DNA from: Hungateiclostridiaceae bacterium UBA1305
GTDB taxonomy: Bacteria; Bacillota; Clostridia; Acetivibrionales; DTU013
Length of the DNA stretch: 64,000 bases
Assembly: GCA_002307275.1 (NCBI GenBank)
Contig: DBTX01000021.1
Span: forward strand, 8,432-72,431
Reading direction: 5' to 3'
The position numbers and the translations under genes are program-made. The notes beneath the pieces were generated by a model. That model saw only the letters and a program-made list of their open reading frames with translations, had not been told where the DNA came from and ran no database searches. Position 1 is the first letter of the stretch. Every line of letters begins with the position of its first letter. This document shows positions 8,803 through 57,221 of the stretch, piece after piece.

Positions 8803-8819
8803 TACTTGTCCAACCCCTG

Positions 8820-29717: not shown

Positions 29718-31604
29718 CTACTCTGCATTTTCTCCCGGTTGTTTATCCGGCGGCAATTGCCGGATATATTCAAGATACGCTTCCAGCGCTATGTCTGAGC
29801 AGCCCTGTTTCCCTGCAAGTTCAAAAAGCCCATATGCCTCGGACAGGTATCCGAGCCGGTATTTATAATATCCGCGCAAAAAATATGTTCCGGCGTTTTC
29901 AGGAGCATATTCAGTGCATAATAAAGCTCCCTGATAACAGCTAAACTTTTCAAGTATTAAAGCCACTTTAATCATAAATATATCCTGGGTATTTTCGGCA
30001 AGCCCCGAGATTATTTTAAATGCAAATAATTCCTGCCGCATTCTATAAATTTCACAGATCACAACGGCAATTTTATTTATGTCACATTTGTCAGGATCCG
30101 TCTCCCTGATAATGCCAAGTGCAAAAGCATATTCCGGCTCCACTGTTTTTGACAGCTTGTCAACATACTCCCGGTTATCCGCGAGAACAGCACAAATCAA
30201 TGCTTTAACACGGGAGAGTTTATCGATTTTTAAGCATTCATCCATTGCCAGTAATTTTGCAGCCGTATCAAATTGGGCGTCACCCGCTTTTAAAAAGCCT
30301 GCGATATAATATAGGAACTGTTCGTCAGGGTAATTCCTTTTGTAAGCCGCAAAGCATTTCAGCAGCTGCGGGCTCATATAATACAGCGCTAATCCCGTCA
30401 TTACCGTTTTATGCCTGGCTTTGCCGGAGTTTTTATAAAGTGACTCTATAAATCCGGTCTTTTCGCTTTCAGGTAAATTTTTTGTAAGATTAAGAAGGAG
30501 TAATAATGCATTTATATTGTCGTTCTCTTTGTCAAAAATCTGATAATAGGTTGAAAAAGCATCGGCGGTATTTTTCAGCGCCTCATAGCATCCGCCCGTC
30601 AATAGAGCTACTCTGGTTGGATTATGTGCGATCTTGCACAATTCTATTCCTTCATAGCTTTTCATAAGAACCGCTGTCCTGCAGAACTCCGTAAGCGCGA
30701 GTTGAAAAAGTCTATAGTTATAACAAGTCAGACCTCGTAAAAAAACAGCATCGGGATGTCCCGGAAATTTCTCTTCCATTTTGTCAATCCAGCTCAATAT
30801 TCTATTGCGGTCCGCATTTGAATGAATCAGACTCTCAATAAGATTTCTATATGGTTTGGATTGCACTCCGTAAAGATATTCACTGCAAGTGTTTTGAAAA
30901 TAAAGTTCCGTATATTTGATTGCATTTTCATGATCTTTAAGAGCAAAGTAGCATTCGCCAATATAATAAAAGTTTATCGTTTTTCGTGATTCATCGATAT
31001 TTTCCAGACCATTTAACAGCATTCCCAGATTTCTTTCCAGCTTTTCCTCCAGGAATAATTGATTATACCCGGTATGCACAATTTTTATTTTATCTTTCGG
31101 GATCTCAAGAATTTTGAGACCTTCTTTTCGATAGGCTGCTTCATGAATGGGATAACGATAATGAAAACCTTTCTTTAAAATCCGGAGCGAATAGGACTCT
31201 TCAAGAACCGCACCATTTAATCCGTCAGTATTGATCATAGGGCATGCAATCACATTTTTTTTAATTCGTTCCGCCTCTAGAATTGCTTTTGGGATATTTT
31301 CCTGACAGTCTTCGTAAAAAAATTCATCGGCATCCAAAAACAGAATCCAGTCACCGGTCGCTTCTTCCAGTGCCCGGTTTTTGGCGGCGGAAAAATCATC
31401 CTGCCATTCAAAATGAATCACTTTGGCGCCGAATTTTTTTGCAATTTCAACGGTTTTATCCGTTGAGCCCGTATCAACAACTATGATTTCATTAACAATA
31501 TTATAATAGCTTTCAATACAGCGTTGAATATTATTTTCCTCATTTTTTGCTATCATACAGGCGGATATTTTTCTCTTACCGCCATTTCTATATTCAGTGC
31601 TCAT
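29718..31604 (-). CDS. Family-2 glycosyltransferase fused to TPR repeats (flagellin glycosylation candidate)
   Basis: 628-aa ORF. The N-terminus ISACMIAKNEENNIQRCIESYYNIVNEIIVVDTGSTDKTVEIA...ILFLDADEF is the GT2 DxD fold. The remaining roughly 400 aa are helical TPR-like repeats. Confidence 0.85.
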   Translation of the reverse strand: MSTEYRNGGKRKISACMIAKNEENNIQRCIESYYNIVNEIIVVDTGSTDKTVEIAKKFGAKVIHFEWQDDFSAAKNRALEEATGDWILFLDADEFFYEDCQENIPKAILEAERIKKNVIACPMINTDGLNGAVLEESYSLRILKKGFHYRYPIHEAAYRKEGLKILEIPKDKIKIVHTGYNQLFLEEKLERNLGMLLNGLENIDESRKTINFYYIGECYFALKDHENAIKYTELYFQNTCSEYLYGVQSKPYRNLIESLIHSNADRNRILSWIDKMEEKFPGHPDAVFLRGLTCYNYRLFQLALTEFCRTAVLMKSYEGIELCKIAHNPTRVALLTGGCYEALKNTADAFSTYYQIFDKENDNINALLLLLNLTKNLPESEKTGFIESLYKNSGKARHKTVMTGLALYYMSPQLLKCFAAYKRNYPDEQFLYYIAGFLKAGDAQFDTAAKLLAMDECLKIDKLSRVKALICAVLADNREYVDKLSKTVEPEYAFALGIIRETDPDKCDINKIAVVICEIYRMRQELFAFKIISGLAENTQDIFMIKVALILEKFSCYQGALLCTEYAPENAGTYFLRGYYKYRLGYLSEAYGLFELAGKQGCSDIALEAYLEYIRQLPPDKQPGENAE

Positions 31605-35541: not shown

Positions 35542-35547
35542 TCCTTA

Positions 35548-38016: not shown

Positions 38017-38041
38017 AGCTTCACCGCCCTCACAGTCTGAG

Positions 38042-38068
38042 AAAAAAGGAGAGTTGCGTCAACTCCCC
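38042..38068 (-). terminator. Intrinsic terminator/attenuator between flgM and flgN
   Basis: The minus strand reads GGGGAGTTG-ACG-CAACTCTCC (9-bp stem, 1 mismatch) followed by TTTTTT. Confidence 0.65.
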
Positions 38069-38076
38069 CAAGGTTG

Positions 38077-38364
38077 CTATGCTTTCTTGTCAAATACGGC
38101 ATTTACTACTTTGTCCGCAACTTCCCTGCCTGTTACATTGTAACTGCCTGTTTCAAATTTCTCCGAAAGCTCGGTCACCTTGCTCTCGCGAACATCGGGC
38201 ACATCCTTCAATGCTTTATATACTGTCTGATAGTCCTTTGCCTCATTTGAGATTGACAAAACATCTTTTTTGGCTGCTGTTGCCTCCGTTTTGCCAACTC
38301 TCGCTGTATTCTTTTGTGTTCCGTAAATTCCGGATACCTTGGATAAATCATCCGGTATTCTCAT
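38077..38364 (-). CDS. flgM: Anti-sigma-28 factor FlgM
   Basis: The ATG at 38364 lies 8 nt after AAGGTGAG. The C-terminal VRESKVTELSEKFETGSYNVTGREVADKVVN is the FlgM sigma-binding region. Confidence 0.8.
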   Translation of the reverse strand: MRIPDDLSKVSGIYGTQKNTARVGKTEATAAKKDVLSISNEAKDYQTVYKALKDVPDVRESKVTELSEKFETGSYNVTGREVADKVVNAVFDKKA

Positions 38365-38445
38365 ATTAACCACTCACCTTCTATAGATAATGCAAAAGGG
38401 TTTTGCGCTTATCTTTCCTTACTCACCTAAAAACTGTTCAATATT

Positions 38446-38474
38446 ATTATCGGTAATAGCTGCATTCTTATTAA
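38446..38474 (-). promoter_or_regulatory. Possible sigma-28-type promoter of the flgM operon
   Basis: The minus strand reads TTAA-N17-CCGATAAT, with the -10 at 38446-38453. The spacing is one nt longer than the SigD consensus. Confidence 0.45.
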
Positions 38475-38626
38475 CAAATAAAAATGCGAATTTATTATTT
38501 TTCGTAAACGTTCATATCATACTAAATTATATTATGTTATATTTTAAGCAACTATAAACTTCTAGTGAAAAAGAGGGTTAGGGATATCTTCTTATTCTAA
38601 TTGTTTTTATCTACGATAAAATAGTA

Positions 38627-38655
38627 TTGATTTTTATCGTTATAGTCGATATATT
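38627..38655 (+). promoter_or_regulatory. Possible sigma-A promoter of the plus-strand sugar-modification island
   Basis: TTGATT (38627-38632), a 17-nt spacer, then TATATT (38650-38655), about 60 nt upstream of the rfbF-like start. Confidence 0.4.
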
Positions 38656-38713
38656 TATTGTTGGCAAAGATGGTTAATTTACTTTCTATTATATTTATGT
38701 GTCGAGGTAGTTT

Positions 38714-39493
38714 ATGAAAGTTGTCATTTTAGCCGGTGGGTTTGGTACAAGAATCAGTGAGGAAAGTCATTTAAAACCGAAACCTATGATAGAAATCGGG
38801 GGGGCTCCAATTCTGTGGCATATCATGAAATATTTTGCAGCCTTTGGCTTCAGCGAGTTTATTATATGCTGCGGATACAAAGGATACCTCATAAAGGAAT
38901 ATTTTGCAGACTACTATCTGCACAGGTCGGATATCACCTTTGACTTTGCCAACAATAACGATATTATCATCCACAGCAATGTCGCCGAGCCTTGGAAGGT
39001 TACTGTAGTGGACACTGGGCTGAATACACAAACAGGAGGACGCATTAAGAAAATTCAAAAGTTCACCAACAGCGAGGCTTTTCTGATGACCTACGGCGAC
39101 GGAGTGAGCAATATTGATCTGTCCGAGTTAATCAAGAGACATAAAAAGTCGGGAAATGTCGTGACCCTATCGGCCATACAACCCAGCGGGCGTTTCGGAG
39201 TGCTGGATATCACCGGCGATGAAACGGTGGTTGGTTTCAGGGAGAAGGCAAAGGAAGATAGCGGATGGGTCAATGGCGGGTTTATGGTGATGGAGCCAAA
39301 GATATTTGATTACATCGACGGTGATGCAACCGTTCTGGAAAGAACTCCTCTCAAACGGTTAAGCAGTGAAGGGAAATTGGGGGTTTATAAGCATTACGGG
39401 TTCTGGCAGTGTATGGACACCCAGAGAGATAAGGATCTTTTGGAATATCTTTGGGACAATAGTAAAGCCTTATGGAAAGTGTGGAGCGATTGA
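38714..39493 (+). CDS. rfbF: Glucose-1-phosphate cytidylyltransferase
   Basis: 259-aa ORF. MKVVILAGGFGTRISEESHLKPKPMIEIGGAPILWHIMK and GFWQCMDTQRDK are highly characteristic of RfbF/DdhA. Confidence 0.9.
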   Translation: MKVVILAGGFGTRISEESHLKPKPMIEIGGAPILWHIMKYFAAFGFSEFIICCGYKGYLIKEYFADYYLHRSDITFDFANNNDIIIHSNVAEPWKVTVVDTGLNTQTGGRIKKIQKFTNSEAFLMTYGDGVSNIDLSELIKRHKKSGNVVTLSAIQPSGRFGVLDITGDETVVGFREKAKEDSGWVNGGFMVMEPKIFDYIDGDATVLERTPLKRLSSEGKLGVYKHYGFWQCMDTQRDKDLLEYLWDNSKALWKVWSD

Positions 39494-39495
39494 GT

Positions 39496-40617
39496 ATGAA
39501 AAGCTTTAAGCAGAAATTTGGAGAAATAAAAACGCAGTACTATAAAAATAATCCTTTTAATGCAATTGTGGAGAAGAAAGAGCTTTTTAGCCAGAAGCCG
39601 CTTATTCTTTACGGTTGTGGCGTATATCTCAGCACAATAATATTTTTATGCAACGAATACGGAATTAAAATAAATGCCATTTGTGATTCTTATAAGACAG
39701 GCATCTACGGTGATACAGGTATGGAGATCATTTCCCCGGAGCGGCTTAAGAAAGAGTTCCAAGGCGCGAACATTATTATCTCTTCAAACATGTTCACCGA
39801 TGAAATAAAAAAAAAGCTTTTATTCCTAGGTTTTCCCAACGCGCAGATTTTTTTACCCGCAACATCAAAGGTAAGTTTTGTGCATCCACAAGAATTTATT
39901 GGTAAACATCTTGAAGGTTATGAATGGGCACACCACTTCTTTACTGATGATAATTCAAAAAAGGTCCTGCTGGACAGGATAAAAATGTATTTTACCGGCA
40001 TTGAATTAATCAGAACCTCTGCTGCCCCAGAGTATTTTGATCCGGAAATCATAAAATTTCATTCGAATGAGGTATTTATTGACGGCGGAGGTTACATCGG
40101 AGATACAGTGCAAGAGTTCATAAGACAGTTAAGCTTAAAAAATGCAGGAGGATATAGGCACATATATTCCTTTGAACCTGATAGAGTGGCTTATAACAAG
40201 GCATTTAGTAGCTTAGGTAAAATTGAGAATATGGATTTGATTTGCAAAGGTCTATGGAGCTGCGATACTGAGTTGAAGTTTTATAGCGACGGTGGTAATG
40301 GCAGCTCCACCTTTGCGAACAGAGTAAATACTATTTCTGTTCCGGTCATATCCCTGGACAGCTATTTTAAAGGTAAACCGAAAGAAGAGTTGCCGACATT
40401 TATTAAAATGGATATCGAAGGAGCAGAAAAAGAAGCACTCACAGGAGCGAAAAACATAATAATGGAAAATCATCCCAAATTGGCTATCTGTACATATCAT
40501 AAGCCGGAAGATATATATGAATTACCGAAACTCATATATGAAATAGATCCAACCTATCAATTTACCCTTCATCAATGTGAGGATGGGATATATGGTACAA
40601 TATTATATGCTGTTTAA
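39496..40617 (+). CDS. FkbM-family methyltransferase with an N-terminal Rossmann-like module
   Basis: The ATG at 39496 immediately follows the rfbF stop. VFIDGGGYIGDT...FEPD...FIKMDIEGAEKEAL...PKLAICTYH is the FkbM core. The N-terminus LILYGCGVYLSTII...ICDSYK forms the extra module. Confidence 0.8.
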   Translation: MKSFKQKFGEIKTQYYKNNPFNAIVEKKELFSQKPLILYGCGVYLSTIIFLCNEYGIKINAICDSYKTGIYGDTGMEIISPERLKKEFQGANIIISSNMFTDEIKKKLLFLGFPNAQIFLPATSKVSFVHPQEFIGKHLEGYEWAHHFFTDDNSKKVLLDRIKMYFTGIELIRTSAAPEYFDPEIIKFHSNEVFIDGGGYIGDTVQEFIRQLSLKNAGGYRHIYSFEPDRVAYNKAFSSLGKIENMDLICKGLWSCDTELKFYSDGGNGSSTFANRVNTISVPVISLDSYFKGKPKEELPTFIKMDIEGAEKEALTGAKNIIMENHPKLAICTYHKPEDIYELPKLIYEIDPTYQFTLHQCEDGIYGTILYAV

Positions 40618-40635
40618 CATGGGGGTAAGTGAAGT

Positions 40636-41601
40636 ATGACACCAATAATCAGTGTAATTATGCTCACATATAACCGTGAGAAGCTTGTCGGAAGGGCGAT
40701 TGAATCAATTATTGCTCAGGCCATGTGTGATTTTGAATTTATTATTGTAGATAATGGGTCAACAGATAATAGCGGGAAAATTGCAGACGAATATGCCGCT
40801 AAAGATTTTAGAATCCATGTCCTCCACCGTCAACAAGGGAATATCGGGAGTGGGCGCAATGTCGGCATCAATGCAGCCAAAGGTAAATATTTGACCTTCA
40901 TAGACGATGATGACTATGCTGAAACAGATTTTTTAGGTTTTTTATATGAGCTTGCAACGAAGTACAATGCGGATATTGCCGTATGCGGCTCAAACAAAGA
41001 GGAAAACGGCAAAATTACGCCCAATTATATCTATGACTACGATGAGCTCTTTATACTGAATACACATGAGGCTATAAAATCTTTTTTGTGGAGAAAGCTT
41101 TACAATGCCGCCATGCCCACAAAGTTGGTCAGACAGGAGTTGTTTCAAAAGATACGTTTCTCTGAAACAGGCAATTATGATGATATTACTACAACTTATC
41201 GCTATTTTGCAAATGCCGGGAAAGTAGTTGCCCACGGCATTCCCAAATATACATTTTACCGCCACCCTGAAAACAACTCCAGCGCAGCCACAAAACATCA
41301 TTTGCTTAACCCTGTTCAGCTTCATGAATACCTGGCGGCCTATCGTGAGAGAACCGAATATATAAGCACGATACTGCCGCAATTGACTGGTTTAGCTCTT
41401 TACAGCGAATGGTCCTATATGATTTCTATGATTGAAAAAATCCATCGCTTTGGGTTAAAAAATTGTGACCAGCCTTTGGAGCTTATGAAAAGCGAATTGA
41501 AAATACATCGAAAGGCATTTTATAACGGGGAATTCATACTGGATTTTGAAAAGGAATGGATGTCGCAGTATGTGACGGAAAAGGAGGAAGGCTTGACATG
41601 A
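40636..41601 (+). CDS. Family-2 glycosyltransferase
   Basis: 321-aa ORF. ISVIMLTYNREKLVGRAIESIIAQ...FIIVDNGSTDNS...FIDDDDY is the GT2 signature. Confidence 0.85.
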   Translation: MTPIISVIMLTYNREKLVGRAIESIIAQAMCDFEFIIVDNGSTDNSGKIADEYAAKDFRIHVLHRQQGNIGSGRNVGINAAKGKYLTFIDDDDYAETDFLGFLYELATKYNADIAVCGSNKEENGKITPNYIYDYDELFILNTHEAIKSFLWRKLYNAAMPTKLVRQELFQKIRFSETGNYDDITTTYRYFANAGKVVAHGIPKYTFYRHPENNSSAATKHHLLNPVQLHEYLAAYRERTEYISTILPQLTGLALYSEWSYMISMIEKIHRFGLKNCDQPLELMKSELKIHRKAFYNGEFILDFEKEWMSQYVTEKEEGLT

Positions 41602-43526
41602 ACGCTGTATCGCTTGAGAGATTCTGTTTCCCGGTGACGCTGCGGTGTAACTTGCATTGTAAGCTGTGCGCGGAGCGTTCGCCGTATTATGAGAAGCCTT
41701 ACCACCCCTCTTTTGATGATCTGACAGCACAAATTGATGTCCTGTTTTCGTTGACAGAGCATATAGGTAATTTGGACATAACAGGCGGAGAACCCTTTTT
41801 ACGCAAGGATTTGTCCTATTTTATCCGCTATATTTTTGACAAACACCGGGACAAAATTGACAAACTCAGAGTCACCACAAACGGAACCATATTGCCAACC
41901 GATGAGTTCATCATTGCGGCAAAACTGTGGGGGGATGCGTTTTTTGCCATAGTTGACAATTACCCTGTGTCCACAAAGAGCAGGGACGTCAGCAAGCTGC
42001 TCAAAGAATCGGGAGTACCCTTTGAACTTCGCGATTATTCCGGTGATTTATATTGTGACGGCTGGGTGGATTACGGCAATTTACGCCGCAAGCATTCCAA
42101 TGCAGAGGCTCGAAAGCAGTTTCATAAATGTATGGTTCCGAAGCTGGGCTTTTTCAGCTGTATGGTGAATGGCCTGATTTTCCCTTGTGCTAAAGCGAGG
42201 CTGCTTTACGAAAAGGGTCTTGCTGACGTATATATGAATGCTTTTGACCCTGAACTGACCGAAACGGGTAAGAAAGCGAGATTAAAAGCTTTGCTGGGCG
42301 ACGAGGTGATGGAAGCCTGCAAATATTGTAACGGTTTATGTGAGGACAGCCTTCGTTTTACTCCGGCGGAACAGCTGGATGCACGTGAGATACCCGCCGA
42401 GTCTTCTTATGAAGAGGGTAGTTACAAAAAAATGCTGTTCTATACACAGACATATAATAACGAAAATACAATCGCCCGTACTATTGAAAGCGTCTTAAAA
42501 CAGACGCGGAAGGATGATTTCCTTTATTTTGTCGTAAATAACGGCTCCACCGACAAGACAGGAAACATCATTGCTGATTTTGCCAACTCCGATCCTCGTA
42601 TAGTATCCGTAGTGTGTGAACGCAACGATATATTGGGTGTGCTGTTGCTGCCGAATAATCTGTTCAAAATGGTTTTAAAAGATAAAAACGTATACTACAG
42701 TATCGTTGATGGAGACGATTTAATTAAAGAAAGTTTTTTGGATAATGTGCTGAGAATTGAAGAGAAGTTTTCTCCCGATATGATAGTTCCAGGTTTCCGC
42801 AGAATTGATGCTGCGTCAGGTGAAATTATAAACGAACGGGTGGCGAAAACAGATTTACTTATCATCGGCCGAGAAAAAGCAGATAGCTTTTATGAATTAA
42901 GGGCATTACTCCTATGTCAATGGGGCAAGTGTTATAAATTAAATTTTTTACGCAGCCAAGCAAGTAACATTTACGCAAATATACGGAGACTACTCCCCAA
43001 ATGGTACCCCGGACAAGATACCATCGGAGTGCTAAATCGTTTTTTTCTCTTTGATAAAGTTGTCTTTACCAAAGAAGCACTATACGACTACTACCTCTAT
43101 CCCCAATCGGCAGTCAATACATATTATCCAAATCGCTATTTAGCGGACGTGTTGACGTTAAAGGTATACAAGGATTTTCTCGGCTATTTCGGTCCTATCA
43201 GCAAGCTAAACAGGGATTTTTGTTATGCAATATACCTGTCACTCCTTGAGTATACATTGAGCATTGTAGTCAATTCACCGGAAGCCGACCACAAACAGAA
43301 GCTGGAGGATATCTACAATATGCTTCGGGACAATGAAACCAAAACCATGCTGACCCTTGACGCGGATCCTGAATTTCACAACTTAGCCAACAGAGGCTCC
43401 TTTATTGCGCCTATTCTCAAATATATGAGAGGACAATCATTAAGGGATGAAACCCATGTGTTGTCAGATGAGGTAATGGCAGAGTTGGTGCAATATAAAC
43501 ATTTAGTAACAAATTGGGAGGATTAA
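41598..43526 (+). CDS. Fusion protein: radical-SAM (SPASM-like Cys-rich extension) N-terminal half plus family-2 glycosyltransferase C-terminal half
   Basis: The ATG at 41598 follows GGAGGAAGG. CNLHCKLC is a CxxxCxxC cluster motif, and a later Cys-rich block ACKYCNGLCED follows. From about residue 290 onward, the sequence YTQTYNNENTIARTIESVLKQT...VVNNGSTDKT...IVDGDD is GT2. Confidence 0.72.
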   Translation: MNAVSLERFCFPVTLRCNLHCKLCAERSPYYEKPYHPSFDDLTAQIDVLFSLTEHIGNLDITGGEPFLRKDLSYFIRYIFDKHRDKIDKLRVTTNGTILPTDEFIIAAKLWGDAFFAIVDNYPVSTKSRDVSKLLKESGVPFELRDYSGDLYCDGWVDYGNLRRKHSNAEARKQFHKCMVPKLGFFSCMVNGLIFPCAKARLLYEKGLADVYMNAFDPELTETGKKARLKALLGDEVMEACKYCNGLCEDSLRFTPAEQLDAREIPAESSYEEGSYKKMLFYTQTYNNENTIARTIESVLKQTRKDDFLYFVVNNGSTDKTGNIIADFANSDPRIVSVVCERNDILGVLLLPNNLFKMVLKDKNVYYSIVDGDDLIKESFLDNVLRIEEKFSPDMIVPGFRRIDAASGEIINERVAKTDLLIIGREKADSFYELRALLLCQWGKCYKLNFLRSQASNIYANIRRLLPKWYPGQDTIGVLNRFFLFDKVVFTKEALYDYYLYPQSAVNTYYPNRYLADVLTLKVYKDFLGYFGPISKLNRDFCYAIYLSLLEYTLSIVVNSPEADHKQKLEDIYNMLRDNETKTMLTLDADPEFHNLANRGSFIAPILKYMRGQSLRDETHVLSDEVMAELVQYKHLVTNWED

Positions 43527-43527
43527 A

Positions 43528-44616
43528 ATGAAATCATTCATAGAGGAATTACAAGTTATAAAAGCACAGTGCGACTCTAGTGTGGCCAAGGAGCGCATTG
43601 AAGTTCTGGCTTCTGCGTTTAGGTCGAAGCCTGTCATATTATATGGTGCTGGGACACTCAGCACCTTTGTTATGGATCATTTATCCACCCACAACGTACA
43701 AGTAGAGTGTTTTTGCGACACCTTTAGGAGCGGTGTCCACCAATCAACTGGATTACCCATTATTTCTGCGGAGCAGTTGAAAAGCCAATACAGCGATGCC
43801 ATCGTCATCGTTACTTCAGAACTTCACGGCGCATCAATCTTGAGTACTCTTCAGAAAATCCAATATCCCGGAAAGATTTACTCTTTTGATGACTTACTTC
43901 CTTTCTACACCATTCCTTATAACAAATTCGAACCCCATGTGGATGGCTATCAGTGGGCCTTTGAATATTTTACCGACATGGAATCTAGACAAGTTATTTT
44001 GGATTCCATGTGTACCCGCTTGTTAGGGACAACAATGACTCCATCGCAAAACCATCAATATTTCGAACCGGATGTCTGTCCCTTGACTGACAGTGAAATA
44101 TTTGTAGACGGTGGGTGCTTTATTGGCGATACGGCAGAGGAATTTATCAGGCAGACAGGAGGGAAATACATCCATATTTATGGGTTCGAACCGGATAAGG
44201 TCAATTTGAAAAAAGCATTGGCAAACCTGTCACAGTACAAAAATATAGACGTTTTAAACAGCGGCTTATGGCACATGACTAATACATACAAGTTTGTTTC
44301 TGGTGCTTTCGGCAATAGCAAATTATCTGAGGACGGCGATACCATTGCCGATACTATCAGCCTTGATGAGTTTTTCTCTGATAAGCACGCTCCTACCTTC
44401 ATAAAAATGGACATTGAGGGAGCAGAATATTGTGCTCTTGAAGGAGCTAAAGACATACTGAAAACACGTAAGCCCAAGCTGGCTATCTGTGTTTACCATC
44501 AGGTTCACGATATATATGCACTTCCTCAGCAAATTCTGAAAATCAATCCGGAGTACAAACTGACACTTAGGCATTACAGCCGTTGGTACGCCGAAAGTGT
44601 TTGTTATGCGGTATAG
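43528..44616 (+). CDS. FkbM-family methyltransferase (paralogue of 39496..40617)
   Basis: 362-aa ORF with the same architecture: VILYGAGTLSTFV...FCDTFR, then IFVDGGCFIGDT...FEPD...FIKMDIEGAEYCAL...PKLAICVYH. Confidence 0.8.
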   Translation: MKSFIEELQVIKAQCDSSVAKERIEVLASAFRSKPVILYGAGTLSTFVMDHLSTHNVQVECFCDTFRSGVHQSTGLPIISAEQLKSQYSDAIVIVTSELHGASILSTLQKIQYPGKIYSFDDLLPFYTIPYNKFEPHVDGYQWAFEYFTDMESRQVILDSMCTRLLGTTMTPSQNHQYFEPDVCPLTDSEIFVDGGCFIGDTAEEFIRQTGGKYIHIYGFEPDKVNLKKALANLSQYKNIDVLNSGLWHMTNTYKFVSGAFGNSKLSEDGDTIADTISLDEFFSDKHAPTFIKMDIEGAEYCALEGAKDILKTRKPKLAICVYHQVHDIYALPQQILKINPEYKLTLRHYSRWYAESVCYAV

Positions 44617-44666
44617 ATATTTTATAACAGCCCCCTATTCAGGGGTTTAAAGAGGAGTGGACAACA

Positions 44667-45593
44667 ATGTTTATTGACAATCGATCAATTGATGTCATAA
44701 TATTTGGCGTTGGGCAAATCGGGCAGAGACTTTGCTTGAAACTTCAACAGGATAAGTCAGAGAATGTCCTTTTCTTTGTTGATAATAACGCTATGTATTG
44801 GGGGACGAGTATAACACTTAATAAGGTTGAGTATAAAGTTTTTTCTCCTGCAAAAATAAAAGAAGTAGGGTACACAAAAGTATGTGTTGCAGTAAAAGAC
44901 GCCAGAAACGACATATATTTGCAGTGCGTTACAGAATTAAGTGTCCCCAAATCAAAATTAGATTGTACTTTTCTAGATAGTTTTGTAAACGACATAGGAC
45001 AGCAGTATTTGATTGGCAGAATACAGTTTCTAAGAACATTTTCACAATTTGCTAAGATGAAGAAAATCGCAGGTGCGGTGGCGGAAGTGGGAGTCTATCG
45101 AGGTGCATTCGCCAGGGAAATTAACCAGAGTTTTCCCGACAGAACACTATACTTGTATGATACATTTGAAGGTTTTGACGAACGGGATATTAATATGGAA
45201 AAATCGTTATCCAGAGATGAGGCGAAAATAAATGGATGGCGAGACTTAATGGGAAACTTTGCAAATACATCTGAAGACTATGTGATATCCCTTATGCCTA
45301 ATCCTGAACAAGTAAGAATAAGGAAAGGATATTTTCCTGATACATTTAATGAGGAAAGCGAGAAATTCTGCTTTGTAAATTTGGACTGCGACCTATATAA
45401 TCCTATAAGAACAGGGTTGGAACGGTTTTATCCACGTATGGTTTGCGGAGGTATTATTTTGGTACACGAGTATTTTGATGAGATAAGTTTTTTACCTGGT
45501 ATCAAGGCTGCGGTGGACGAATTTGTTTCAGCTAATCACTGTGTAACTATCCCCATAGGCGACTGTCAATCAATCGCAGTGCTTAAGATATAA
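44667..45593 (+). CDS. TylF/MycF-like (macrocin-type) O-methyltransferase with an N-terminal Rossmann-like module
   Basis: 308-aa ORF. GAVAEVGVYRGAFAREINQSFPDRTLYLYDTFEGF ... FVNLDCDLYNPIRTGLERFYPRMVCGGIILVHEY fits the TylF family. The N-terminus is VIIFGVGQIGQRL...FFVDNN. Confidence 0.72.
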   Translation: MFIDNRSIDVIIFGVGQIGQRLCLKLQQDKSENVLFFVDNNAMYWGTSITLNKVEYKVFSPAKIKEVGYTKVCVAVKDARNDIYLQCVTELSVPKSKLDCTFLDSFVNDIGQQYLIGRIQFLRTFSQFAKMKKIAGAVAEVGVYRGAFAREINQSFPDRTLYLYDTFEGFDERDINMEKSLSRDEAKINGWRDLMGNFANTSEDYVISLMPNPEQVRIRKGYFPDTFNEESEKFCFVNLDCDLYNPIRTGLERFYPRMVCGGIILVHEYFDEISFLPGIKAAVDEFVSANHCVTIPIGDCQSIAVLKI

Positions 45594-45624
45594 GTAAATA
45601 GAGAAAAACTAGAGGTGAAGTGCT

Positions 45625-46731
45625 ATGAATTGCAAAACCTTACTATTTCACAATGGCGATTATCATAAACAAGCTCCGTTGCGGTTTAGTGAGATCATGA
45701 AAACATCTATGGAGCAGATTACACAGATATTCAGCAACTCTGCACATAGAAAAAATACGGGTGTGTTTTGTATGACAGACACATTGGCAAAGAATCTGGA
45801 TGCAGAGTGGATATCCGGAGGATATAATCTAAAAGATTCATCTGCGAACTCGGTTGTTACAAATTCGTTGCATGCAATATCGCCGACTCATTTTGCTGGT
45901 GTTTATGAATACTGGATGAAGTTGTTAGATTCTACGGTCAACTTAGTTCCTCTCTCTTGCGGATTTCTTTATCCTCCAAATGGGGAAGTGGTGCTCTCGA
46001 ACGATTTAATCAAACTTCTGTCTGCAATTAGTGAGAGAAATGAAATTGGCGTCCGAGGTGAATATGCAGCGGATGTATTGGTAAAACACGGGATTCGCAA
46101 CGTGAGAATTATTGGGTGTCCTTCTTTATTTTATCATAATTGCCGTAATTTTAAATTGCCTGTACAAACAAATAGTCGATCAATAAAACAAATTAATTTT
46201 ACTTTTCAAACAGAAGTATCACCACCAAAAGTTTTTTATGAACAGCACTTAGGTATATTCGACTATTTCCATAAATTGTATCAAGTAAGAGATAAGAATA
46301 TAAATTGGACCCTTCAATGGACACCGTTTCGTACAATGGTATCACTTACATCTTATAGGAACTTTAATGAAACAGTTGGTTTTCTTAACGAGCGGGGCCG
46401 TTATTTCTTCTCGGTTGATGACTGGATAGAACAACTGAAGCTTGATGATTTTTCAATTGGTACGACAATACACGGAAATATTGCGGCAATCAACGCTAAA
46501 ATTCCTGCATTACCCATCGTAATCGACAGGCGTATGGAAGAGATATGTCGTTGGCATAAAATACCCTATGTCCAAATGGAAAAATTTGATCCGAGCAAGC
46601 CAATCGAATACTACCGGGAACTGGCTGATTATTCAGAATTTAACAAGGCCTATGCTTCTAATTTCGATAACTATTTGGATTACTGCAGGAAAAATAAGGT
46701 GGCAATGAAACCATTGGTGGAAACAGTTTAA
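45625..46731 (+). CDS. Possible polysaccharide pyruvyl-transferase-family protein
   Basis: 368-aa ORF. The segment ISERNEIGVRGEYAADVLVKHGIRNVRIIGCPSLFY and the later GTTIHGNIAAINAKIPALPI resemble PS_pyruv_trans proteins. The recognition is weak. Confidence 0.45.
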   Translation: MNCKTLLFHNGDYHKQAPLRFSEIMKTSMEQITQIFSNSAHRKNTGVFCMTDTLAKNLDAEWISGGYNLKDSSANSVVTNSLHAISPTHFAGVYEYWMKLLDSTVNLVPLSCGFLYPPNGEVVLSNDLIKLLSAISERNEIGVRGEYAADVLVKHGIRNVRIIGCPSLFYHNCRNFKLPVQTNSRSIKQINFTFQTEVSPPKVFYEQHLGIFDYFHKLYQVRDKNINWTLQWTPFRTMVSLTSYRNFNETVGFLNERGRYFFSVDDWIEQLKLDDFSIGTTIHGNIAAINAKIPALPIVIDRRMEEICRWHKIPYVQMEKFDPSKPIEYYRELADYSEFNKAYASNFDNYLDYCRKNKVAMKPLVETV

Positions 46732-46746
46732 CATAGGAGATAAACC

Positions 46747-48393
46747 ATGGGCAAAATAGTCTTAGTTTCAATCCTGCCCACAAGCAGAAAACGTCTTTTG
46801 GAGTTGCAGAGTCAAGAAATCGCCTTGACGGAGTTGTTCAACTGGTCTACATGGCCGCTTGGCATTCTCTCTATTGAAAGCTATATAAAAAAATCCCGCC
46901 CCCAACTATCTGTGGAAATAGTTGACCTGAACAGGACTTTTCTTAAAGATATCAATGCAAGCGCAGATTATAAAGAGGGTTTAAAAGAGATAACAGATAA
47001 CTACACGCAGTTTTTGACCAAGGAAATCATCGATATTTGTCAGCGGGAACAGGTAGATATTATTGGGTTATCCGCGCTCTTTGATATATCTCTGTCGTCA
47101 CTTTTGCTTGTAGCCGAGGAAGTGCGTAAAGCGGCACCCAATACTCTCATCATTGCAGGAGGCTATCCCTGCACCAATTTCGCTGCTGATATCATTGCCA
47201 GAAATCCTGCTGTAGATGCAATTTGCCTCGGCGAGGGTGAGGTTCCCTTTGCTGAATTAATTGCCGCCGACGACAAGAAAGAATACCTGAATACATCGTC
47301 TTACTTCGTCACAAAGGCTCACAAGGGAGATACAAAAGGATTTATTCCAGACATAAACGACATTCCCCGTCTGAACTATGACGGCTATATCGCCAAATAC
47401 GGTGATGAAGTAATCAAGGAGTATGTAAACGTGCTAAATGGCGGGAAGGGGGCCTTTGGAACTGAAGGTATCGTTATGACCACCAGGGGCTGTCCCTTTT
47501 CTTGCGTTTTTTGCGCTGCCCACTCCATTCATGGAAGAAGCATGCGCTATCTTTCAATAGAACGAGTCAAAGAGGAAATTGATTATTGGATAGATAATTA
47601 TAATGTTGCTACAATAAATATTATAGACGACCATTTTCTGGCTGATGTGGGCCGTGCTATTGAGATAATCGACTATATATGCGGCAGAGGAAGAAACGTG
47701 TTCTTTGCCAATACCCTCTCCTTTGTTCCTGTAACAAAAGAGTTTGTTGATTGCCTGGTTCGCAATGGAATCAAAGATATTCACTTCGCCCTCGAATCCG
47801 GCTCCACCCGTGTACTGCGGGATATTATGCACAAACCTGTAACATTAAGGCGCGCTGATGAAGTGCTTTCCATGTTTAAAGGCACTGGCATTTTCGTGAA
47901 AATCGCCCTTCTCGTGGGATTTCCCGATGAAACGGTTGACGATATAAAGGAAGCTCTCCAGTACTTAAGGAAAGCAGAATATCATTGGGCCACCATCAGC
48001 AATTTGATTCCTATTTCAGGGAGTGTAGTATACAAACAAATCATTGAGGTTTCGGGGACTGAGTACAAAATGGATAACGCCAACGTGTTCGCAGCAGGAT
48101 ACGCAAATCCCGAAACAGTCGCATATATGCTGGGCGACATTAAATATACCATGAACTTGGATATTAACTTCGTCCATAATTCATATATGCGTATAGGAGA
48201 GTATGGGTTGGCGGCGGGACGTTTCGAATCGATCCTGAGAAGCTATCCTAATCACGCCTTCGCTCATTATTATCTCGCAAAATGCCGCGAGAAACTAGGC
48301 GAGGACGGAACCGAACATTATCAGCAATTCTGCCAATTGGTGAGCACAAGTGAATTGTGGACGAAATACGCTACACATTTCGGATTGGAGTAG
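46747..48393 (+). CDS. B12-binding-domain radical-SAM enzyme (class B, methylase-like)
   Basis: 548-aa ORF. The N-terminal region (DIIGLSALF...LIIAGGYPCT) resembles a cobalamin-binding Rossmann domain. It is followed by TTRGCPFSCVFCAAH (CxxxCxxC). Confidence 0.82.
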   Translation: MGKIVLVSILPTSRKRLLELQSQEIALTELFNWSTWPLGILSIESYIKKSRPQLSVEIVDLNRTFLKDINASADYKEGLKEITDNYTQFLTKEIIDICQREQVDIIGLSALFDISLSSLLLVAEEVRKAAPNTLIIAGGYPCTNFAADIIARNPAVDAICLGEGEVPFAELIAADDKKEYLNTSSYFVTKAHKGDTKGFIPDINDIPRLNYDGYIAKYGDEVIKEYVNVLNGGKGAFGTEGIVMTTRGCPFSCVFCAAHSIHGRSMRYLSIERVKEEIDYWIDNYNVATINIIDDHFLADVGRAIEIIDYICGRGRNVFFANTLSFVPVTKEFVDCLVRNGIKDIHFALESGSTRVLRDIMHKPVTLRRADEVLSMFKGTGIFVKIALLVGFPDETVDDIKEALQYLRKAEYHWATISNLIPISGSVVYKQIIEVSGTEYKMDNANVFAAGYANPETVAYMLGDIKYTMNLDINFVHNSYMRIGEYGLAAGRFESILRSYPNHAFAHYYLAKCREKLGEDGTEHYQQFCQLVSTSELWTKYATHFGLE

Positions 48394-48396
48394 ACC

Positions 48397-49902
48397 ATGC
48401 TATACAGAGCCTTTGGAAAAACGGGGAAAATGGTTTCAGCTGTGGGAATGGGCGCAAACCGCTTCAAACCGGAAGTTACTAATACTGCCGACGGTGTAGA
48501 GCAGTGCGCCCGGCTTGTGGTACAAGCCGCCACCTTGGGTGTGAACTTTTTCGACAGTGCTGCTGCGTATTCGGGCGGTAAATGTGAGGAAATCCTCAGG
48601 CTGGCTTTACGGCAAGTGGACGGAAAACGCTACATATGTGGTAAATCCTCCAGCCACCAGGAAAAGACCCAAGATGCTGTACTGCGACACATTGAGTGCT
48701 CTCTTAAAAATATAGGAATAGACTACTTTGACTTCTATTATATGTGGAGTATAAAATCCATGAGCCAATACCAGGAAATTATGACCCTGGGGGGGCCTTA
48801 TGAAGGTGTTACGGCGGCAAAAGAGCGGGGGCTTGTGAAACACATATGCTTTTCATCGCATACGTCAGCCCAGGACACGGTGCGAATCATACAGGACGGT
48901 GCCTTTGAAGGCGTATTGCTGTCATATTCCCTTTTAAATTTCCGTGAAAACAACAATGCCATCGAAACCGCTCAACGAAGCGGTTTGGGTGTTGCTGTTA
49001 TGAACCCGCTGGGCGGCGGAATCATACCGCAGAATGCCGAATTGTTTAAGCCGGCAGTTATGAATGATGATATTGACACAAACGACGCGGCACTAAAGTT
49101 TATCTATGCTCATACTGCTGTCAGTACCATACTGTGCGGAGTAGAAAATGGGTTGGAATTAGCGGCTGACGTGAAATCACTGTCAGCCACAGACAGGAAA
49201 GCAGACTCGCGCCGAACCTATGTCGCAGCCAATCTGGGGGCGTTTTCAGAATTTTGCACAGGCTGCGGATATTGTAATGACTGCCCTGCGGGAATTCCGA
49301 TATCTGCCCTGATGACTGCTTACAATCAGACTAGGTTTAAGTCGGATACATTTATCTACAACAGAACTATACCGGAGCTTATTAAACGAGGTAATTTCTT
49401 CCGAGCCCTTGAAGGTCATACGGAGTTTAAAAACAGTGTAAACCCTTGTATAAACTGCGGTAAATGTGAAAAAGTGTGTACCCAACGATTGCCCATCATA
49501 GACAGAATTTCTAAAATATACCGATGGGTGGAGGTCAGCTGTGCATCCCTTTTCGATCGGAAAAAGCGGTTGGGCAGCTTGATATCTACCCAATATCATC
49601 GTGTTGGATTTTACACAGCTGGAGGGTATACAGCTTTTATAATAAAACTGTATAAAAAATTATTGGGTGGCCTTCCCTTCCAGACGTATGTATTTGATTC
49701 CAATCCCCTCAGGTGGGGAGATGAATTCTCTGACGGATTTGTCATACGAAGCCCGGAAGAGATACCGGAACTCAACTTGGATGTAGTTTTGATTTCAAAC
49801 TATGTATACAGCGACCAAATTTACGAAGACCTGACGGTTCGTTTCCCGGCTGTGAATGTGCAAAGATTGCACACAGACAAAGATGTTCCGTGGGTTTTTT
49901 GA
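48397..49902 (+). CDS. Aldo/keto reductase fused to a 2x[4Fe-4S]-type Cys cluster region and a C-terminal Rossmann-like module
   Basis: 501-aa ORF. MLYRAFGKTGKMVSAVGMGANRF...NFFDSAAAYSGG is the AKR part. CTGCGYCNDCP and CINCGKCEKVC are ferredoxin-like motifs. The last 120 aa or so (VGFYTAGGYTAF...VFDSNPLRWGDEF...VVLISNY) resemble the N-terminal module of the FkbM and TylF proteins. Confidence 0.78.
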   Translation: MLYRAFGKTGKMVSAVGMGANRFKPEVTNTADGVEQCARLVVQAATLGVNFFDSAAAYSGGKCEEILRLALRQVDGKRYICGKSSSHQEKTQDAVLRHIECSLKNIGIDYFDFYYMWSIKSMSQYQEIMTLGGPYEGVTAAKERGLVKHICFSSHTSAQDTVRIIQDGAFEGVLLSYSLLNFRENNNAIETAQRSGLGVAVMNPLGGGIIPQNAELFKPAVMNDDIDTNDAALKFIYAHTAVSTILCGVENGLELAADVKSLSATDRKADSRRTYVAANLGAFSEFCTGCGYCNDCPAGIPISALMTAYNQTRFKSDTFIYNRTIPELIKRGNFFRALEGHTEFKNSVNPCINCGKCEKVCTQRLPIIDRISKIYRWVEVSCASLFDRKKRLGSLISTQYHRVGFYTAGGYTAFIIKLYKKLLGGLPFQTYVFDSNPLRWGDEFSDGFVIRSPEEIPELNLDVVLISNYVYSDQIYEDLTVRFPAVNVQRLHTDKDVPWVF

Positions 49903-49916
49903 GAGGGTAAAACATT

Positions 49917-51143
49917 ATGGCGACAGTTCTTGTTTATATTTGTGCTTATAATGCGGAAAATACATTAAGACGCACTATAGACAGTGTTTTTGCTCAGACA
50001 TACCATAACTGGGTTTGTTACATCGTCAATAACGGGTCTGCAGACGGCACCGGTGCCATTATCCGTGAGTATGCAGATTTCGATAGCCGCGTAATTCCGT
50101 TGGCAAATAAAAAAAATCAAGTTTGGGAACGGGGAAATAGAAGCATGGAGTTGATTCGGCAATATAATGACGACGATTTTTTCTGTATTCTTGATGCAGA
50201 CGATGAATACAAGCCAGACTTCCTTGAAAAATCTATCGCTTTTATGAAAGAGCATAATCTTAACATTACTGTATGCGGAAGTGTTTTTATTGACACACAG
50301 ACCAATACGGTATGCGGGATCAGAGAAGTAAGACAAAACGTAGTTATTGAGGGACAGCTTTTTTCAGATATGTTCCCACACTACCACCAATTTATGAGGA
50401 CCACATGGGGTAAGCTATATTCAATATCCGTGTTTCGCAAGTATGATTATTCTCGTGTGCCGTCTATCAACTATGGATGGGATACTCTATATGCACAGGA
50501 AAATTTTCGCAATGCCAACCGCATTGGAATCCTGGCGGGAACCCTACACAAATACTACATTTCGCCTAAATCATCTTCCTATATATGGGATGCAAAACGT
50601 ATAGAAAGTGACAACATCCTCTTTGACACGGCCAAGGACTTCCTCATATGCAAGTGTGGCAGCCTTTTGGCGCGTAACAAAGAATTCCTCCTGGGGGTCT
50701 ATATGAGCGCACTCAGTGATACACTGAAAGTATTACTGAACGCAGGTATAAGCAAAAGGGAAAAGCTCGATTCGCTAGGGAGTATGTTTCTGTGTATAAA
50801 CACCAAAGTACTGGCAGCGAGTGAGCACTTTGGTGCAGCATGCGGCAGCGAGGTAGAGTGGACAAAGTGGCGAAGGGAGTTGTTTAAAGAGGCAGCACAA
50901 TGGCTTCTTAATCAGGAGGAAGTGGCAGACGAGCAAGTGGAGGGCTTCTGTGAACTTGGTGAGTTTCTCTGCGCTGCCTGCGAAAATGCAGAGGGTTGGC
51001 TGTTTTTCAAGAAACTCCTTGTTACGTTTTTGATTGATAGTGGACGTGTGGATGAAGTGAACCCAAAGCTAGACGAGTTGCTTGAACTACAACCTAACGA
51101 TGCAGAGATTGAAGTTCTGGGCAGAAAAAGGGGGGCAAGGTAA
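49917..51143 (+). CDS. Family-2 glycosyltransferase with a helical C-terminal domain
   Basis: 408-aa ORF. VLVYICAYNAENTLRRTIDSVFAQT...IVNNGSADGT...ILDADDEY is GT2. Confidence 0.8.
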   Translation: MATVLVYICAYNAENTLRRTIDSVFAQTYHNWVCYIVNNGSADGTGAIIREYADFDSRVIPLANKKNQVWERGNRSMELIRQYNDDDFFCILDADDEYKPDFLEKSIAFMKEHNLNITVCGSVFIDTQTNTVCGIREVRQNVVIEGQLFSDMFPHYHQFMRTTWGKLYSISVFRKYDYSRVPSINYGWDTLYAQENFRNANRIGILAGTLHKYYISPKSSSYIWDAKRIESDNILFDTAKDFLICKCGSLLARNKEFLLGVYMSALSDTLKVLLNAGISKREKLDSLGSMFLCINTKVLAASEHFGAACGSEVEWTKWRRELFKEAAQWLLNQEEVADEQVEGFCELGEFLCAACENAEGWLFFKKLLVTFLIDSGRVDEVNPKLDELLELQPNDAEIEVLGRKRGAR

Positions 51144-51456
51144 AATTCGAAAAGTTAGGCTTGGTTAACGATTTTATTCTCCCAAGAACATGCAAGAACG
51201 GTCAGTGAATATTCTCAATATTGCCCGTTCCTGTACAGAAACCCAATAATTGCTCTGGTTGCTCCTCGCATTGCACTATCCTGTTTTTAGGCAAAAACTG
51301 TGTATATTATTGGGCCTTAACTGAGATAAATACACTAAATAATGGTGATGAATCAAAAGATTTCATTATCTAAAACCACTGTTATTACAATTAACTTTAT
51401 AAGCTCTGTTTACTGCTTCCTTAGCAATACTCAATTTAATATCCTTTCTTGATACC

Positions 51457-51882
51457 CTATTTCCCTTCATCCTTATTCAGGTAACGCATACCGATCACTT
51501 TCCTTGAAGCATCAGAAATGCCGCCGATTTCGCTCTTCATCTGACTTGCAGTAGCTTTGAGCTCCGATGCAAGATTTCTCTCACACTCATCACAAAATCT
51601 TCCGCTTTTTATAGATTTCCCGCAGTTCTCGCATTCCAGAATCATATTGCCGTCATCTCCGGTGATTTCAAGTCTACCGTCCTTTAAAAACCTTCTGATC
51701 TTTTCCACACCGATATCAAGTTCTATCGATACCTGTGTAATACTTGATCCGGGATTTCTATACAAATAATCCTTGATTTTTTTAAAATCCTCTTCCTCTG
51801 CTTGTTTGCATATCGGGCAAATCGGTGATCCGATATAATTGAAAATCTTCCCGCATTTTCTGCAATTTCTGACCTCTGACAC
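51457..51882 (-). CDS. yvyF: Flagellar-operon zinc-ribbon protein YvyF (TIGR03826-type)
   Basis: 141-aa ORF with a GTG start 6 nt after GGGGAGGG. It has CRKCGKIF...CPICK and CENCGKSI...CDEC zinc ribbons. It lies between comFC and the flgM block, as in B. subtilis. Confidence 0.75.
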   Translation of the reverse strand: MSEVRNCRKCGKIFNYIGSPICPICKQAEEEDFKKIKDYLYRNPGSSITQVSIELDIGVEKIRRFLKDGRLEITGDDGNMILECENCGKSIKSGRFCDECERNLASELKATASQMKSEIGGISDASRKVIGMRYLNKDEGK

Positions 51883-51897
51883 GTGAATCCCTCCCCG

Positions 51898-56917: not shown

Positions 56918-56951
56918 TATAAGTTCTCCTTTCATTTTCTCCAAGCTTATT

Positions 56952-57100: not shown

Positions 57101-57221
57101 TATCTATTCAATTTTTATTACTTACCGGTAGCCAAAATAAAATTTTGCAAACCGGCATATTTAAATTAACATAAATTATAAACTGCGTCAAGTATCATTT
57201 GACATCTCTGAAACAAAAACG

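Follow-up and report, generated by a model that had tools for sequence, protein, structure and literature searches.

The 64,000-nucleotide stretch of contig DBTX01000021.1 from Hungateiclostridiaceae bacterium UBA1305 (the window) carries a flagellar locus in which ten genes on the opposite strand, here called the island, stand between yvyF and flgM. Around them the minus strand reads recD2, comFC, yvyF, the island, flgM, flgN, flgK, a second flgK paralog, flgL, a DUF6470 gene, fliW, csrA, a gene for a glycosyltransferase family 2 protein with tetratricopeptide repeats (GT2-TPR), the flagellin gene, flaG, fliD, fliS and a FlgN-family gene, and all genes adjoining the island lie on the minus strand. 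A first-pass annotation had described ten packed plus-strand genes at exactly this point, and ten intact ORFs (open reading frames) do indeed occupy 38714-51143, closely packed with gaps of -46 to +50 nt. The comFC-yvyF-flgM synteny that it reported also stands, although it overlooked the second flgK paralog and the GT2-TPR gene beside flagellin, and the gene upstream of comFC encodes RecD2 and not ComFA/ComFB. The island genes, numbered I01-I10 in Table 1, encode glycosyltransferases, methyltransferases, radical S-adenosylmethionine (radical-SAM) enzymes and an aldo-keto reductase (AKR), among others.

The island interrupts a junction that is otherwise conserved. A YvyF scan with one genome per species yielded 80 loci, of which the 33 closest (L007-L039, yvyF 53-85% identical) belong to uncultured Bacillota, Hungateiclostridiaceae and Acetivibrionales, including Acetivibrio alkalicellulosi. 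This places the host among Acetivibrionales-like Clostridia, and a Bacillus-type host was rejected. These 33 keep the order recD2-comFC-yvyF-flgM-flgN-flgK-flgK-flgL-DUF6470-fliW, and none of them has island genes at the yvyF-flgM locus. Because flgM starts only 90-400 bp past yvyF in every one of the 33, the segment 38501-51453 is almost certainly a true insertion relative to all sampled relatives, as the first-pass annotation had proposed. In a blastn comparison with the closest relative, L007, matching blocks were found at window positions 38035-38500 and 51454-51900, which are only 19 bp apart in L007. Sequences assembled independently from other samples (Logan SRR404117 and a 111-kb Joint Genome Institute contig) show identical junctions, and the arrangement is therefore not that of a chimeric contig. 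A conserved CCGATAAT element lies in front of flgM, with the insertion point upstream of it; judged against the consensus, CCGATAAT is presumably a sigma-28-type -10 box. No direct or inverted repeats of at least 9 bp joining both borders were found, there is no tRNA within the window, and the island-specific flanks (38501-38713 and 51144-51453) contain no ORF remnant, no mobile-element remnant and no match to other loci. Promoter and terminator scans gave counts at chance level. GC skew is positive over the island (window 38001-52000) and negative in the rest of the window; transcription of the island opposes that of all neighbours, including dnaB, rplI and ftsH, and is probably head-on to replication.

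Table 1. Features of the island, its surroundings and related loci. Coordinates are window positions unless a locus in another genome (L number) is named; LBE, Desulfitobacterium sp. LBE (GCA_007830365.1); GT2, glycosyltransferase family 2.
Feature	Coordinates	Strand	Remarks
flgM (anti-sigma-28 factor), left border	38077..38373	-	PF04316; upstream region to 38500 conserved with relatives
Inserted segment	38501..51453	.	12,953 bp; directly after yvyF stop codon, just upstream of kept flgM promoter region
I01 RfbF, glucose-1-phosphate cytidylyltransferase	38714..39493	+	TIGR02623 equivalog, 393.8 bits (cutoff 300)
I02 FkbM-family methyltransferase, N-terminal Rossmann-like accessory domain	39472..40617	+	PF05050, TIGR01444; accessory; 83% to LBE
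I03 stand-alone GT2	40636..41601	+	PF00535 E = 2e-34; core gene
I04 twitch/SPASM-type radical-SAM (~1-265) and GT2 (~277-630) fusion	41598..43526	+	core gene; alternative start 41556
I05 FkbM-family methyltransferase	43528..44616	+	PF05050; PDB 2py6 FkbM E = 3e-25; core; 62-88% identical in seven loci
I06 TylF-family sugar O-methyltransferase, N-terminal GxGxxG Rossmann-like domain	44667..45593	+	PF05711; accessory
I07 polysaccharide pyruvyl-transferase family (PS_pyruv_trans)	45625..46731	+	PF04230 E = 1.9e-12; accessory; 86% to LBE, 39% to L005
I08 B12-binding (class B) radical-SAM enzyme, short TPR-like C-terminal tail	46747..48393	+	PF02310 48.3 bits (cutoff 32.1); PF04055 69.2 bits, also above cutoff
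I09 aldo-keto reductase with two 4Fe-4S motifs and C-terminal Rossmann-like domain	48397..49902	+	PF00248, Fer4 families; core
I10 second stand-alone GT2	49917..51143	+	PF00535 E = 1.2e-26; accessory; 81% LBE, 74% L089, 55% L087
Shared Rossmann-like domain	39574-39921, 43600-43947, 44667-45011, 49585-49899	+	recurs in four tailoring enzymes
yvyF-like flagellar-region gene, right border	51457..51882	-	TIGR03826 114.5 bits (cutoff 124); 85% identical to L007
GT2-TPR protein, 628 aa, between csrA and flagellin gene	29718..31604	-	candidate initiating flagellin glycosyltransferase; outside island
Flagellin, presumed acceptor	28238..29479	-	413 aa from MKINHN; Flagellin_N, Flagellin_C; ~190-aa Thr-rich central domain
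Tandem FlgK-family genes	33916-37506	-	652 and 541 aa
FliD-like protein	23804-24703	+	299 aa
SAM (S-box) riboswitch	57001-57102	-	83.7 bits
metK	55724-56944		
Block with T2SSE-type ATPases	6412-19107	-	
LBE cassette locus	L003		flgL-...-csrA-flaG-flagellin-GT2/TPR-RfbF-cassette, then transposase fragments
Cassette loci	L088, L090		flagellin, large GT2(-TPR), cassette
Cassette locus	L087		GT2-TPR, cassette, flaG-fliD-fliS
Cassette locus	L004		GT2-TPR ... cassette ... cheB/R/W/A
More distant cassette variant	L093		with GT2-TPR, between hpf and secA
Cassette locus	L092		cassette, then prfB
Cassette loci	L005/L006, L089		no flagellar gene inside short flanks
Partial FkbM, B12 radical-SAM, AKR/ferredoxin set	L091 1-9000		at contig end; adjoins type VI secretion genes TssC, TssD, ClpV-like
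Small radical-SAM paralogs	L004 12458-13327; L005 7404-8276; L088 12120-12989; L089 8784-9650		
Two sulfatase-family genes	L005 1676-4355		termite-gut cassette

The enzyme families named in the first-pass annotation agree with Pfam and NCBIfam, except that its list summed to 11 enzymes for ten genes, the stand-alone GT2 enzymes being two and not three. By its family assignment, RfbF almost certainly makes cytidine diphosphate (CDP)-D-glucose. The stand-alone GT2 I03 has orthologs in all eight related loci that were found through the I04 fusion protein (47-70% identity), and in one of these, L090, it forms a single protein with the twitch radical-SAM domain. The other, I10, is present in 4 of the 8, with only a distant 36% match in L090. 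The radical-SAM half of I04 has a CxxxCxxC motif (C17/C21/C24) and invariant cysteines at C178, C188, C197, C241, C244 and C248, a SPASM/twitch-like pattern. In an AlphaFold2 (AF2) model (pLDDT 81) this half superposes on SpeY (7wzv) by Foldseek (E = 2.4e-9, TMt 0.61, 21% identity), and the GT2 half on the soluble GT2 enzymes TarP, TarS, RmlT and CgT. From the cysteines and the fold we infer that the N-terminal half is a twitch radical-SAM dehydrogenase-like domain. The fusion is very rare: there are ~23 homologs among 5.8 billion proteins, and when 1.84 billion representatives were scanned exhaustively with HMMER, only 3 full-length clusters (50% identity) emerged.

The B12-binding radical-SAM enzyme, I08, is the most conserved gene of the set (69-90% identical across loci), and is absent from L090. 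It carries a CPFSCVFC motif, its best PDB match is the cobalamin-dependent methyltransferase TokK (E = 3.6e-13), and its best NCBIfam matches are P-/C-methyltransferases, the top one reaching 114 bits against a cutoff of 575. An AprD4/AprD3-like deoxygenation by I08 and I09 is a minor alternative, as AprD4 matches at 34 bits versus up to 114 bits for the methyltransferase families. In the alignment of I09, D53, Y58 and K83 and both Cys motifs are invariant, and the usual catalytic His appears from the motif to be replaced by Met. The PDB relatives of I06 are the O-methyltransferases 4cdz/5i10, MycF and NovP, of which MycF and NovP act on sugars; for I07 no PDB relative was found by sequence.

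A ~90-aa glycine-loop domain recurs at the N-terminus of I02, I05 and I06 and at the C-terminal end of I09 (hhalign probability 90-96% for three pairs). It matches Pfam C2185-like_N (PF22674) only weakly, below threshold, and profile-profile comparison and a model were used instead. The AF2 model of the I06 N-domain (pLDDT 71) resembles Rex, the N-domain of UDP-quinovosamine 4-dehydrogenase and VioB, with a further fold match to 2g6t, an uncharacterised Clostridium acetobutylicum protein. That the shared domain binds nucleotides in I02, I05, I06 and I09 is only a lead from this moderate-confidence model.

A hydropathy scan found no membrane segments in the ten island proteins, the only peaks lying inside the soluble B12 and radical-SAM domains. 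Pfam scans of the island gave no priming transferase, flippase, ABC exporter, polymerase, ligase or oligosaccharyltransferase. Neither a dehydratase of the short-chain dehydrogenase/reductase (SDR) type acting on nucleoside diphosphate (NDP) sugars, nor RfbG, nor the pyridoxal phosphate (PLP)-dependent RfbH was found by Pfam in essentially all of the larger ORFs of the window or in any related locus. The window likewise has no NeuB/PseI-type synthase, CMP-sugar synthetase, Maf or pse/leg/neu genes by Pfam and NCBIfam, so the early remark that CDP-glucose 4,6-dehydratase and nonulosonic-acid genes are missing holds.

Among PDB entries, the GT2-TPR protein encoded beside flagellin best matches the GmaR glycosyltransferase domain from Listeria (E = 3.7e-30). 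Next come a Glyco_trans_2-like domain protein (7msk) and SunS, both GT2 enzymes that modify proteins; the SunS-family NCBIfam model gives 94 bits, below its cutoff. The combination of GT2 and TPR is the signature by which flagellin glycosyltransferases have been called in Clostridium (PMC13317340). The protein is a near-orphan, with a best non-self match 35-40% identical among 5.8 billion proteins. Its gene stands before the flagellin gene in the window and after it in L007, L008, L021 and L030, and some other relatives have none. We infer that it was not transferred together with the island, and that a resident, flagellin-specific transferase co-evolves with the flagellin gene as the sugar module is exchanged. 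The flagellin of the closest relative, L007 (14634-15416), is 260 aa long versus 413 aa in the window, and the arrival of the long variable domain may have coincided with that of the glycosylation genes. In the same region, two FlgK-family genes stand in tandem before flgL, a duplication shared by most of the 33 relatives. Beside the fliS/FlgN-like genes, the opposite strand encodes a protein whose match to the filament cap protein FliD is confined to the N-terminal part of the latter.

Gene sets related to the island, here termed cassettes, were gathered from relatives of the fusion protein and, separately, from relatives of I08. Their recurring core consists of RfbF, an I03-type GT2, the I04 radical-SAM domain, I05, I08 and I09, with I02, I06, I07 and I10 as accessory genes. 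Flagellar or chemotaxis genes are directly adjacent in 6 of the 8 loci found via the fusion protein, which come from distant lineages, and the order flagellin, large GT2(-TPR), RfbF cassette is seen in three of them (L003, L088 and L090). Two further contexts involve hpf, secA and prfB (L093 and L092), genes that in B. subtilis come after fliS/fliT. The radical-SAM domain of I04 is joined to a GT2 in every case, with L090 showing the reverse order and an I03-type GT2, and the B12 radical-SAM enzyme is strictly paired with the AKR/ferredoxin gene. In four cassettes a stand-alone paralog of the I04 radical-SAM domain (~289 aa, 32-37% identical) lies directly upstream of the I08-type gene, at the place where the window and LBE have the I07-type pyruvyl-transferase-family gene; stand-alone small radical-SAM proteins of this type form about a hundred clusters. 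The termite-gut cassette L005 has two soluble sulfatase-family genes between RfbF and GT2, and its lineage may thus have an additional sulfate- or phosphate-type modification.

One of these cassettes is that of LBE. At the DNA level the island is 86.5% identical to it over 9.7 kb (41432-51131) and 85.6% over 1.2 kb (39473-40695), and the I02 and I04-I10 proteins are 81-90% identical between the two, whereas the flagellar proteins encoded beside the LBE cassette are only 27-38% identical to those of the window. The two hosts belong to different orders (NCBI taxonomy). It is all but certain from these identities that the island and the LBE cassette share a recent ancestor, and, because the hosts are so distant and their flagellar proteins so divergent, the comparison points firmly to horizontal transfer between orders, either direct or via a common donor. 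The island also has the look of a recombinant mosaic, because RfbF and I03 are nearer to L089, another metagenomic cassette, than to LBE and gene order differs between cassettes: I01 is 70% identical to LBE in protein and 68% in nucleotides, with saturated dS, versus 84% to L089, and I03 is 52% identical to LBE and 70% to L089 (aa). Composition was set aside as a sole argument for transfer and the case is carried by synteny and identity. The suggested profile of GC content and codon usage did reveal a slight shift (41.3% GC in the island vs 44.1% in the flanks; codon-usage correlation 0.89 vs 0.91 in the control), which is too weak alone.

Ratios of nonsynonymous to synonymous substitution (dN/dS) between island and LBE are 0.08-0.23 at unsaturated dS of 0.35-0.69, and all ten genes are thus almost certainly kept under purifying selection. 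These values bear on the idea that the island has no function at present, being either a transferred passenger that is silent or decaying or a product of chimeric assembly. The metagenomic origin of the contig, an orientation opposite to all neighbours, the lack of promoter or terminator signal above chance and the slightly lower GC would fit such an idea, but the ten ORFs are intact with lengths matching their homologs, selection has held dN/dS low, and the same junctions occur in assemblies from different samples. We regard it as very improbable.

Taken as a whole, the island is probably a horizontally acquired, functional and wholly cytoplasmic flagellin glycosylation island that works with CDP-glucose and radical-SAM tailoring. 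Flagellin, which the first-pass annotation had also proposed, is the most likely target: flagellar context recurs around the cassette, the island encodes no membrane, flippase or priming protein, and a GmaR-like GT2-TPR is encoded beside the flagellin gene. The alternative target is a cell-wall polymer, or an S-layer or SLH-anchoring polysaccharide, which the island would glycosylate, methylate and pyruvylate, its flagellar position being accidental. Structurally, the GT2 half of I04 is closest to TarP, TarS and RmlT, cytoplasmic enzymes that glycosylate wall teichoic acid; I07 falls in the pyruvyl-transferase family, to which CsaB also belongs; an SLH-domain protein is encoded in the window; and two cassette loci were seen without flagellar genes. 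Set against this are the flagellin, GT2-TPR or other flagellar genes that adjoin the cassette in most of the fusion-found loci across distant lineages, the lack in the island of a priming transferase, flippase, ABC transporter, polymerase, ligase or any membrane protein, and the movement of the cassette as a unit between flagellar loci. A wall polymer is therefore an unlikely target, though less so than the other alternatives considered here.

Several observations do weigh against flagellin glycosylation by the island. The resemblance of the I04 GT2 half to wall-teichoic-acid glycosyltransferases is one, and the short flanks of L005/L006 and L089 another. Between the island and the GT2-TPR gene lie ~7 kb, and between it and the flagellin gene ~9 kb; the island is on the opposite strand, and a search for a sigma-28 pattern before it gave nothing convincing. 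Elsewhere, the GT2-TPR proteins tied to the cassette share just 28-35% identity with that of the window, so that initiation by the latter is assumed. The central domain of the flagellin, at first described as Thr/Ser-rich, is so only mildly, with 26% S+T over the central 190 aa (Thr 18%) versus 22% in the conserved termini. In L091 the I08 homolog is 72% identical in a type VI secretion context, where the set is partial and not a full cassette; the three-gene tailoring unit of FkbM, B12 radical-SAM and AKR/ferredoxin genes may thus also be used outside flagellar loci. All matches of I08 to curated NCBIfam subfamilies fall below cutoff. The roles of the radical-SAM and AKR proteins are assigned at the level of family, and both the glycosylation of flagellin itself and the chemistry of the glycan are predicted from sequence.

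With flagellin as the acceptor, a pathway can be proposed as follows. The resident GmaR-like GT2-TPR would set the first sugar on Ser/Thr of flagellin before its export, and RfbF would provide CDP-glucose, from which the soluble I03, the GT2 half of I04 and I10 would lengthen the chain with a CDP-glucose-derived hexose. The twitch radical-SAM domain of I04 would turn a sugar hydroxyl into a ketone, as SpeY and BtrN do, and the AKR/ferredoxin protein I09 would reduce this ketone, leading to epimerisation or deoxygenation in a route that needs no classical CDP-glucose 4,6-dehydratase (RfbG); these oxidation and reduction steps are proposed because of the fold and the co-occurrence of the genes. 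I08 would methylate an unactivated carbon, the FkbM and TylF enzymes would O-methylate, and I07 may add a pyruvate ketal, C-methylation and pyruvylation being family-level guesses. The Rossmann-like, putatively nucleotide-binding domain common to four tailoring enzymes suggests that tailoring takes place on the CDP-sugar, and the GT2 fusion and the TPR-like tail of the B12 enzyme suggest that it takes place on the flagellin-bound glycan.

The radical-SAM enzymes could instead modify the flagellin polypeptide, by B12-dependent C-methylation or side-chain oxidation as in Mmp10 and the maturases of ribosomally synthesised and post-translationally modified peptides (RiPPs), with the sugar genes serving a separate, simple glucosylation. 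Among its higher NCBIfam hits, I08 does match a RiPP C-methyltransferase family at 94.9 bits and, more weakly, the glutamine C-methyltransferase of methyl-coenzyme M reductase (MCR) at 54 bits; peptide maturases often carry SPASM/twitch domains; and I08 has a TPR-like tail, TPRs being the part that confers flagellin recognition in flagellin glycosyltransferases (PMC13317340). Every match to a peptide-modifying family is, however, far under its cutoff, the best structural match of the I04 radical-SAM domain is a carbohydrate dehydrogenase, and this domain is always joined to a GT2, in two different orders, so that modification of the polypeptide appears improbable.

Returning to glycan tailoring, the most specific form of the proposal can only be put forward tentatively, as we think it possible but rather less likely than not to hold in full. 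In it, the core of the cassette is a radical-SAM route that turns CDP-glucose into an O-methylated flagellin hexose which is branched (C-methylated) and/or epimerised or deoxygenated, bypassing the NDP-sugar 4,6-dehydratase of the reported flagellin deoxysugar routes. In bacterial protein glycosylation, radical-SAM enzymes of the cobalamin-dependent and twitch kinds would here have their first role, carried by a module that is mobile between flagellar loci of Clostridia orders, with related contigs labelled Negativicutes and Synergistales.

Other kinds of gene cluster were considered and rejected. A glycocin or RiPP cluster does not fit, as gaps of 50 nt or less leave no room for a precursor and Pfam gave no transporter or peptidase. 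For anti-phage defence, PADLOC returned only weak matches to the radical-SAM core (25.9 bits for pVip, and for PDC-M51A a match confined to the core). A Wzx/Wzy- or ABC-dependent O-antigen, capsule or S-layer cassette was dismissed in the light of ten proteins predicted to be soluble and no priming, export, polymerase or ligase function.

Elsewhere in the window, an SAM (S-box) riboswitch lies upstream of metK and is the only Rfam match in the window. A long minus-strand block encodes two ATPases of the T2SSE type, one protein with a SAF domain, one with an SLH domain and several large ones (796, 687 and 350 aa) that have no Pfam match, and may be a pilus or secretion-like cluster.

Flagellin glycans influence motility, filament stability, and host and phage recognition, and the known pathways for them use nonulosonic acids or classical NDP-sugar chemistry. 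If the proposal is true, the cassette brings radical-SAM and cobalamin chemistry into protein glycosylation, with a modular logic in which the flagellin-specific transferase stays with the flagellin gene and the module that makes and tailors the sugar is swapped between orders. LBE is a cultured carrier, so the prediction is directly testable. For specialists, interest lies in the rare fusion, in the chemistry of radical-SAM and B12 enzymes and in how cleanly the exchange of a module between orders can be seen.

A radical-SAM route is not known to have been described for flagella. A full-text literature search, from which most subscription journals were excluded, found no paper linking flagellin glycosylation with radical-SAM enzymes, cobalamin-dependent radical-SAM enzymes or CDP-glucose in this sense, and none giving a flagellar or glycoprotein substrate for class B radical-SAM methyltransferases. 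The first impression that the route departs from known flagellin pathways is upheld by these results and by the lack of dehydratase and nonulosonic-acid genes in every locus. It is well established, in Geobacillus (PMC5109656) and Clostridium (PMC13317340), that there are flagellin glycosylation islands and that these are hypervariable and are transferred horizontally. Like those Gram-positive islands, the one described here is a variable block inside a late flagellar locus, brings together nucleotide-sugar synthesis, soluble glycosyltransferases, methyltransferases (FkbM among them) and a GT2-TPR flagellin glycosyltransferase, and belongs to a type frequently associated with transposases and horizontal transfer. 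It differs in lying between yvyF and flgM on the opposite strand, whereas theirs lie between the flagellin gene and fliD/flgB, in having no Maf or nonulosonic-acid genes, and in having two radical-SAM enzymes and an AKR/ferredoxin protein; no radical-SAM term occurs in the text of either paper.

Nearest in starting material are flagellar islands for which CDP-paratose (a 3,6-dideoxyhexose) has been predicted, in C. butyricum DSM 10702, C. sporogenes and C. thermosuccinogenes; these carry RfbF, RfbG, RfbH and RfbS (PMC13317340). They too start from RfbF and CDP-glucose and are paired with a GT2-TPR flagellin glycosyltransferase, but neither the present island nor any cassette locus has RfbG, RfbH or RfbS, and the twitch radical-SAM/GT2 fusion, the B12 radical-SAM enzyme and the AKR/ferredoxin protein are found instead. 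The flagellin O-linked N-acetylglucosamine (GlcNAc) transferase GmaR of Listeria monocytogenes is likewise a GT2-TPR protein encoded beside flagellar genes, and its domain is matched by that of the window; GmaR adds a single GlcNAc and acts as an anti-repressor, whereas the window protein is presumed only to start the chain. The N-terminal half of I04 shares CxxxCxxC and the conserved auxiliary-cluster cysteines with SpeY (spectinomycin) and BtrN (butirosin), which belong to aminoglycoside pathways, whereas the predicted I04 domain is fused to a GT2 in a protein-glycosylation locus. Lastly, I08 has the N-terminal B12-binding domain and radical-SAM core of the class B enzymes TokK and GenK, from which it is set apart by its TPR-like tail and its AKR/ferredoxin gene partner.

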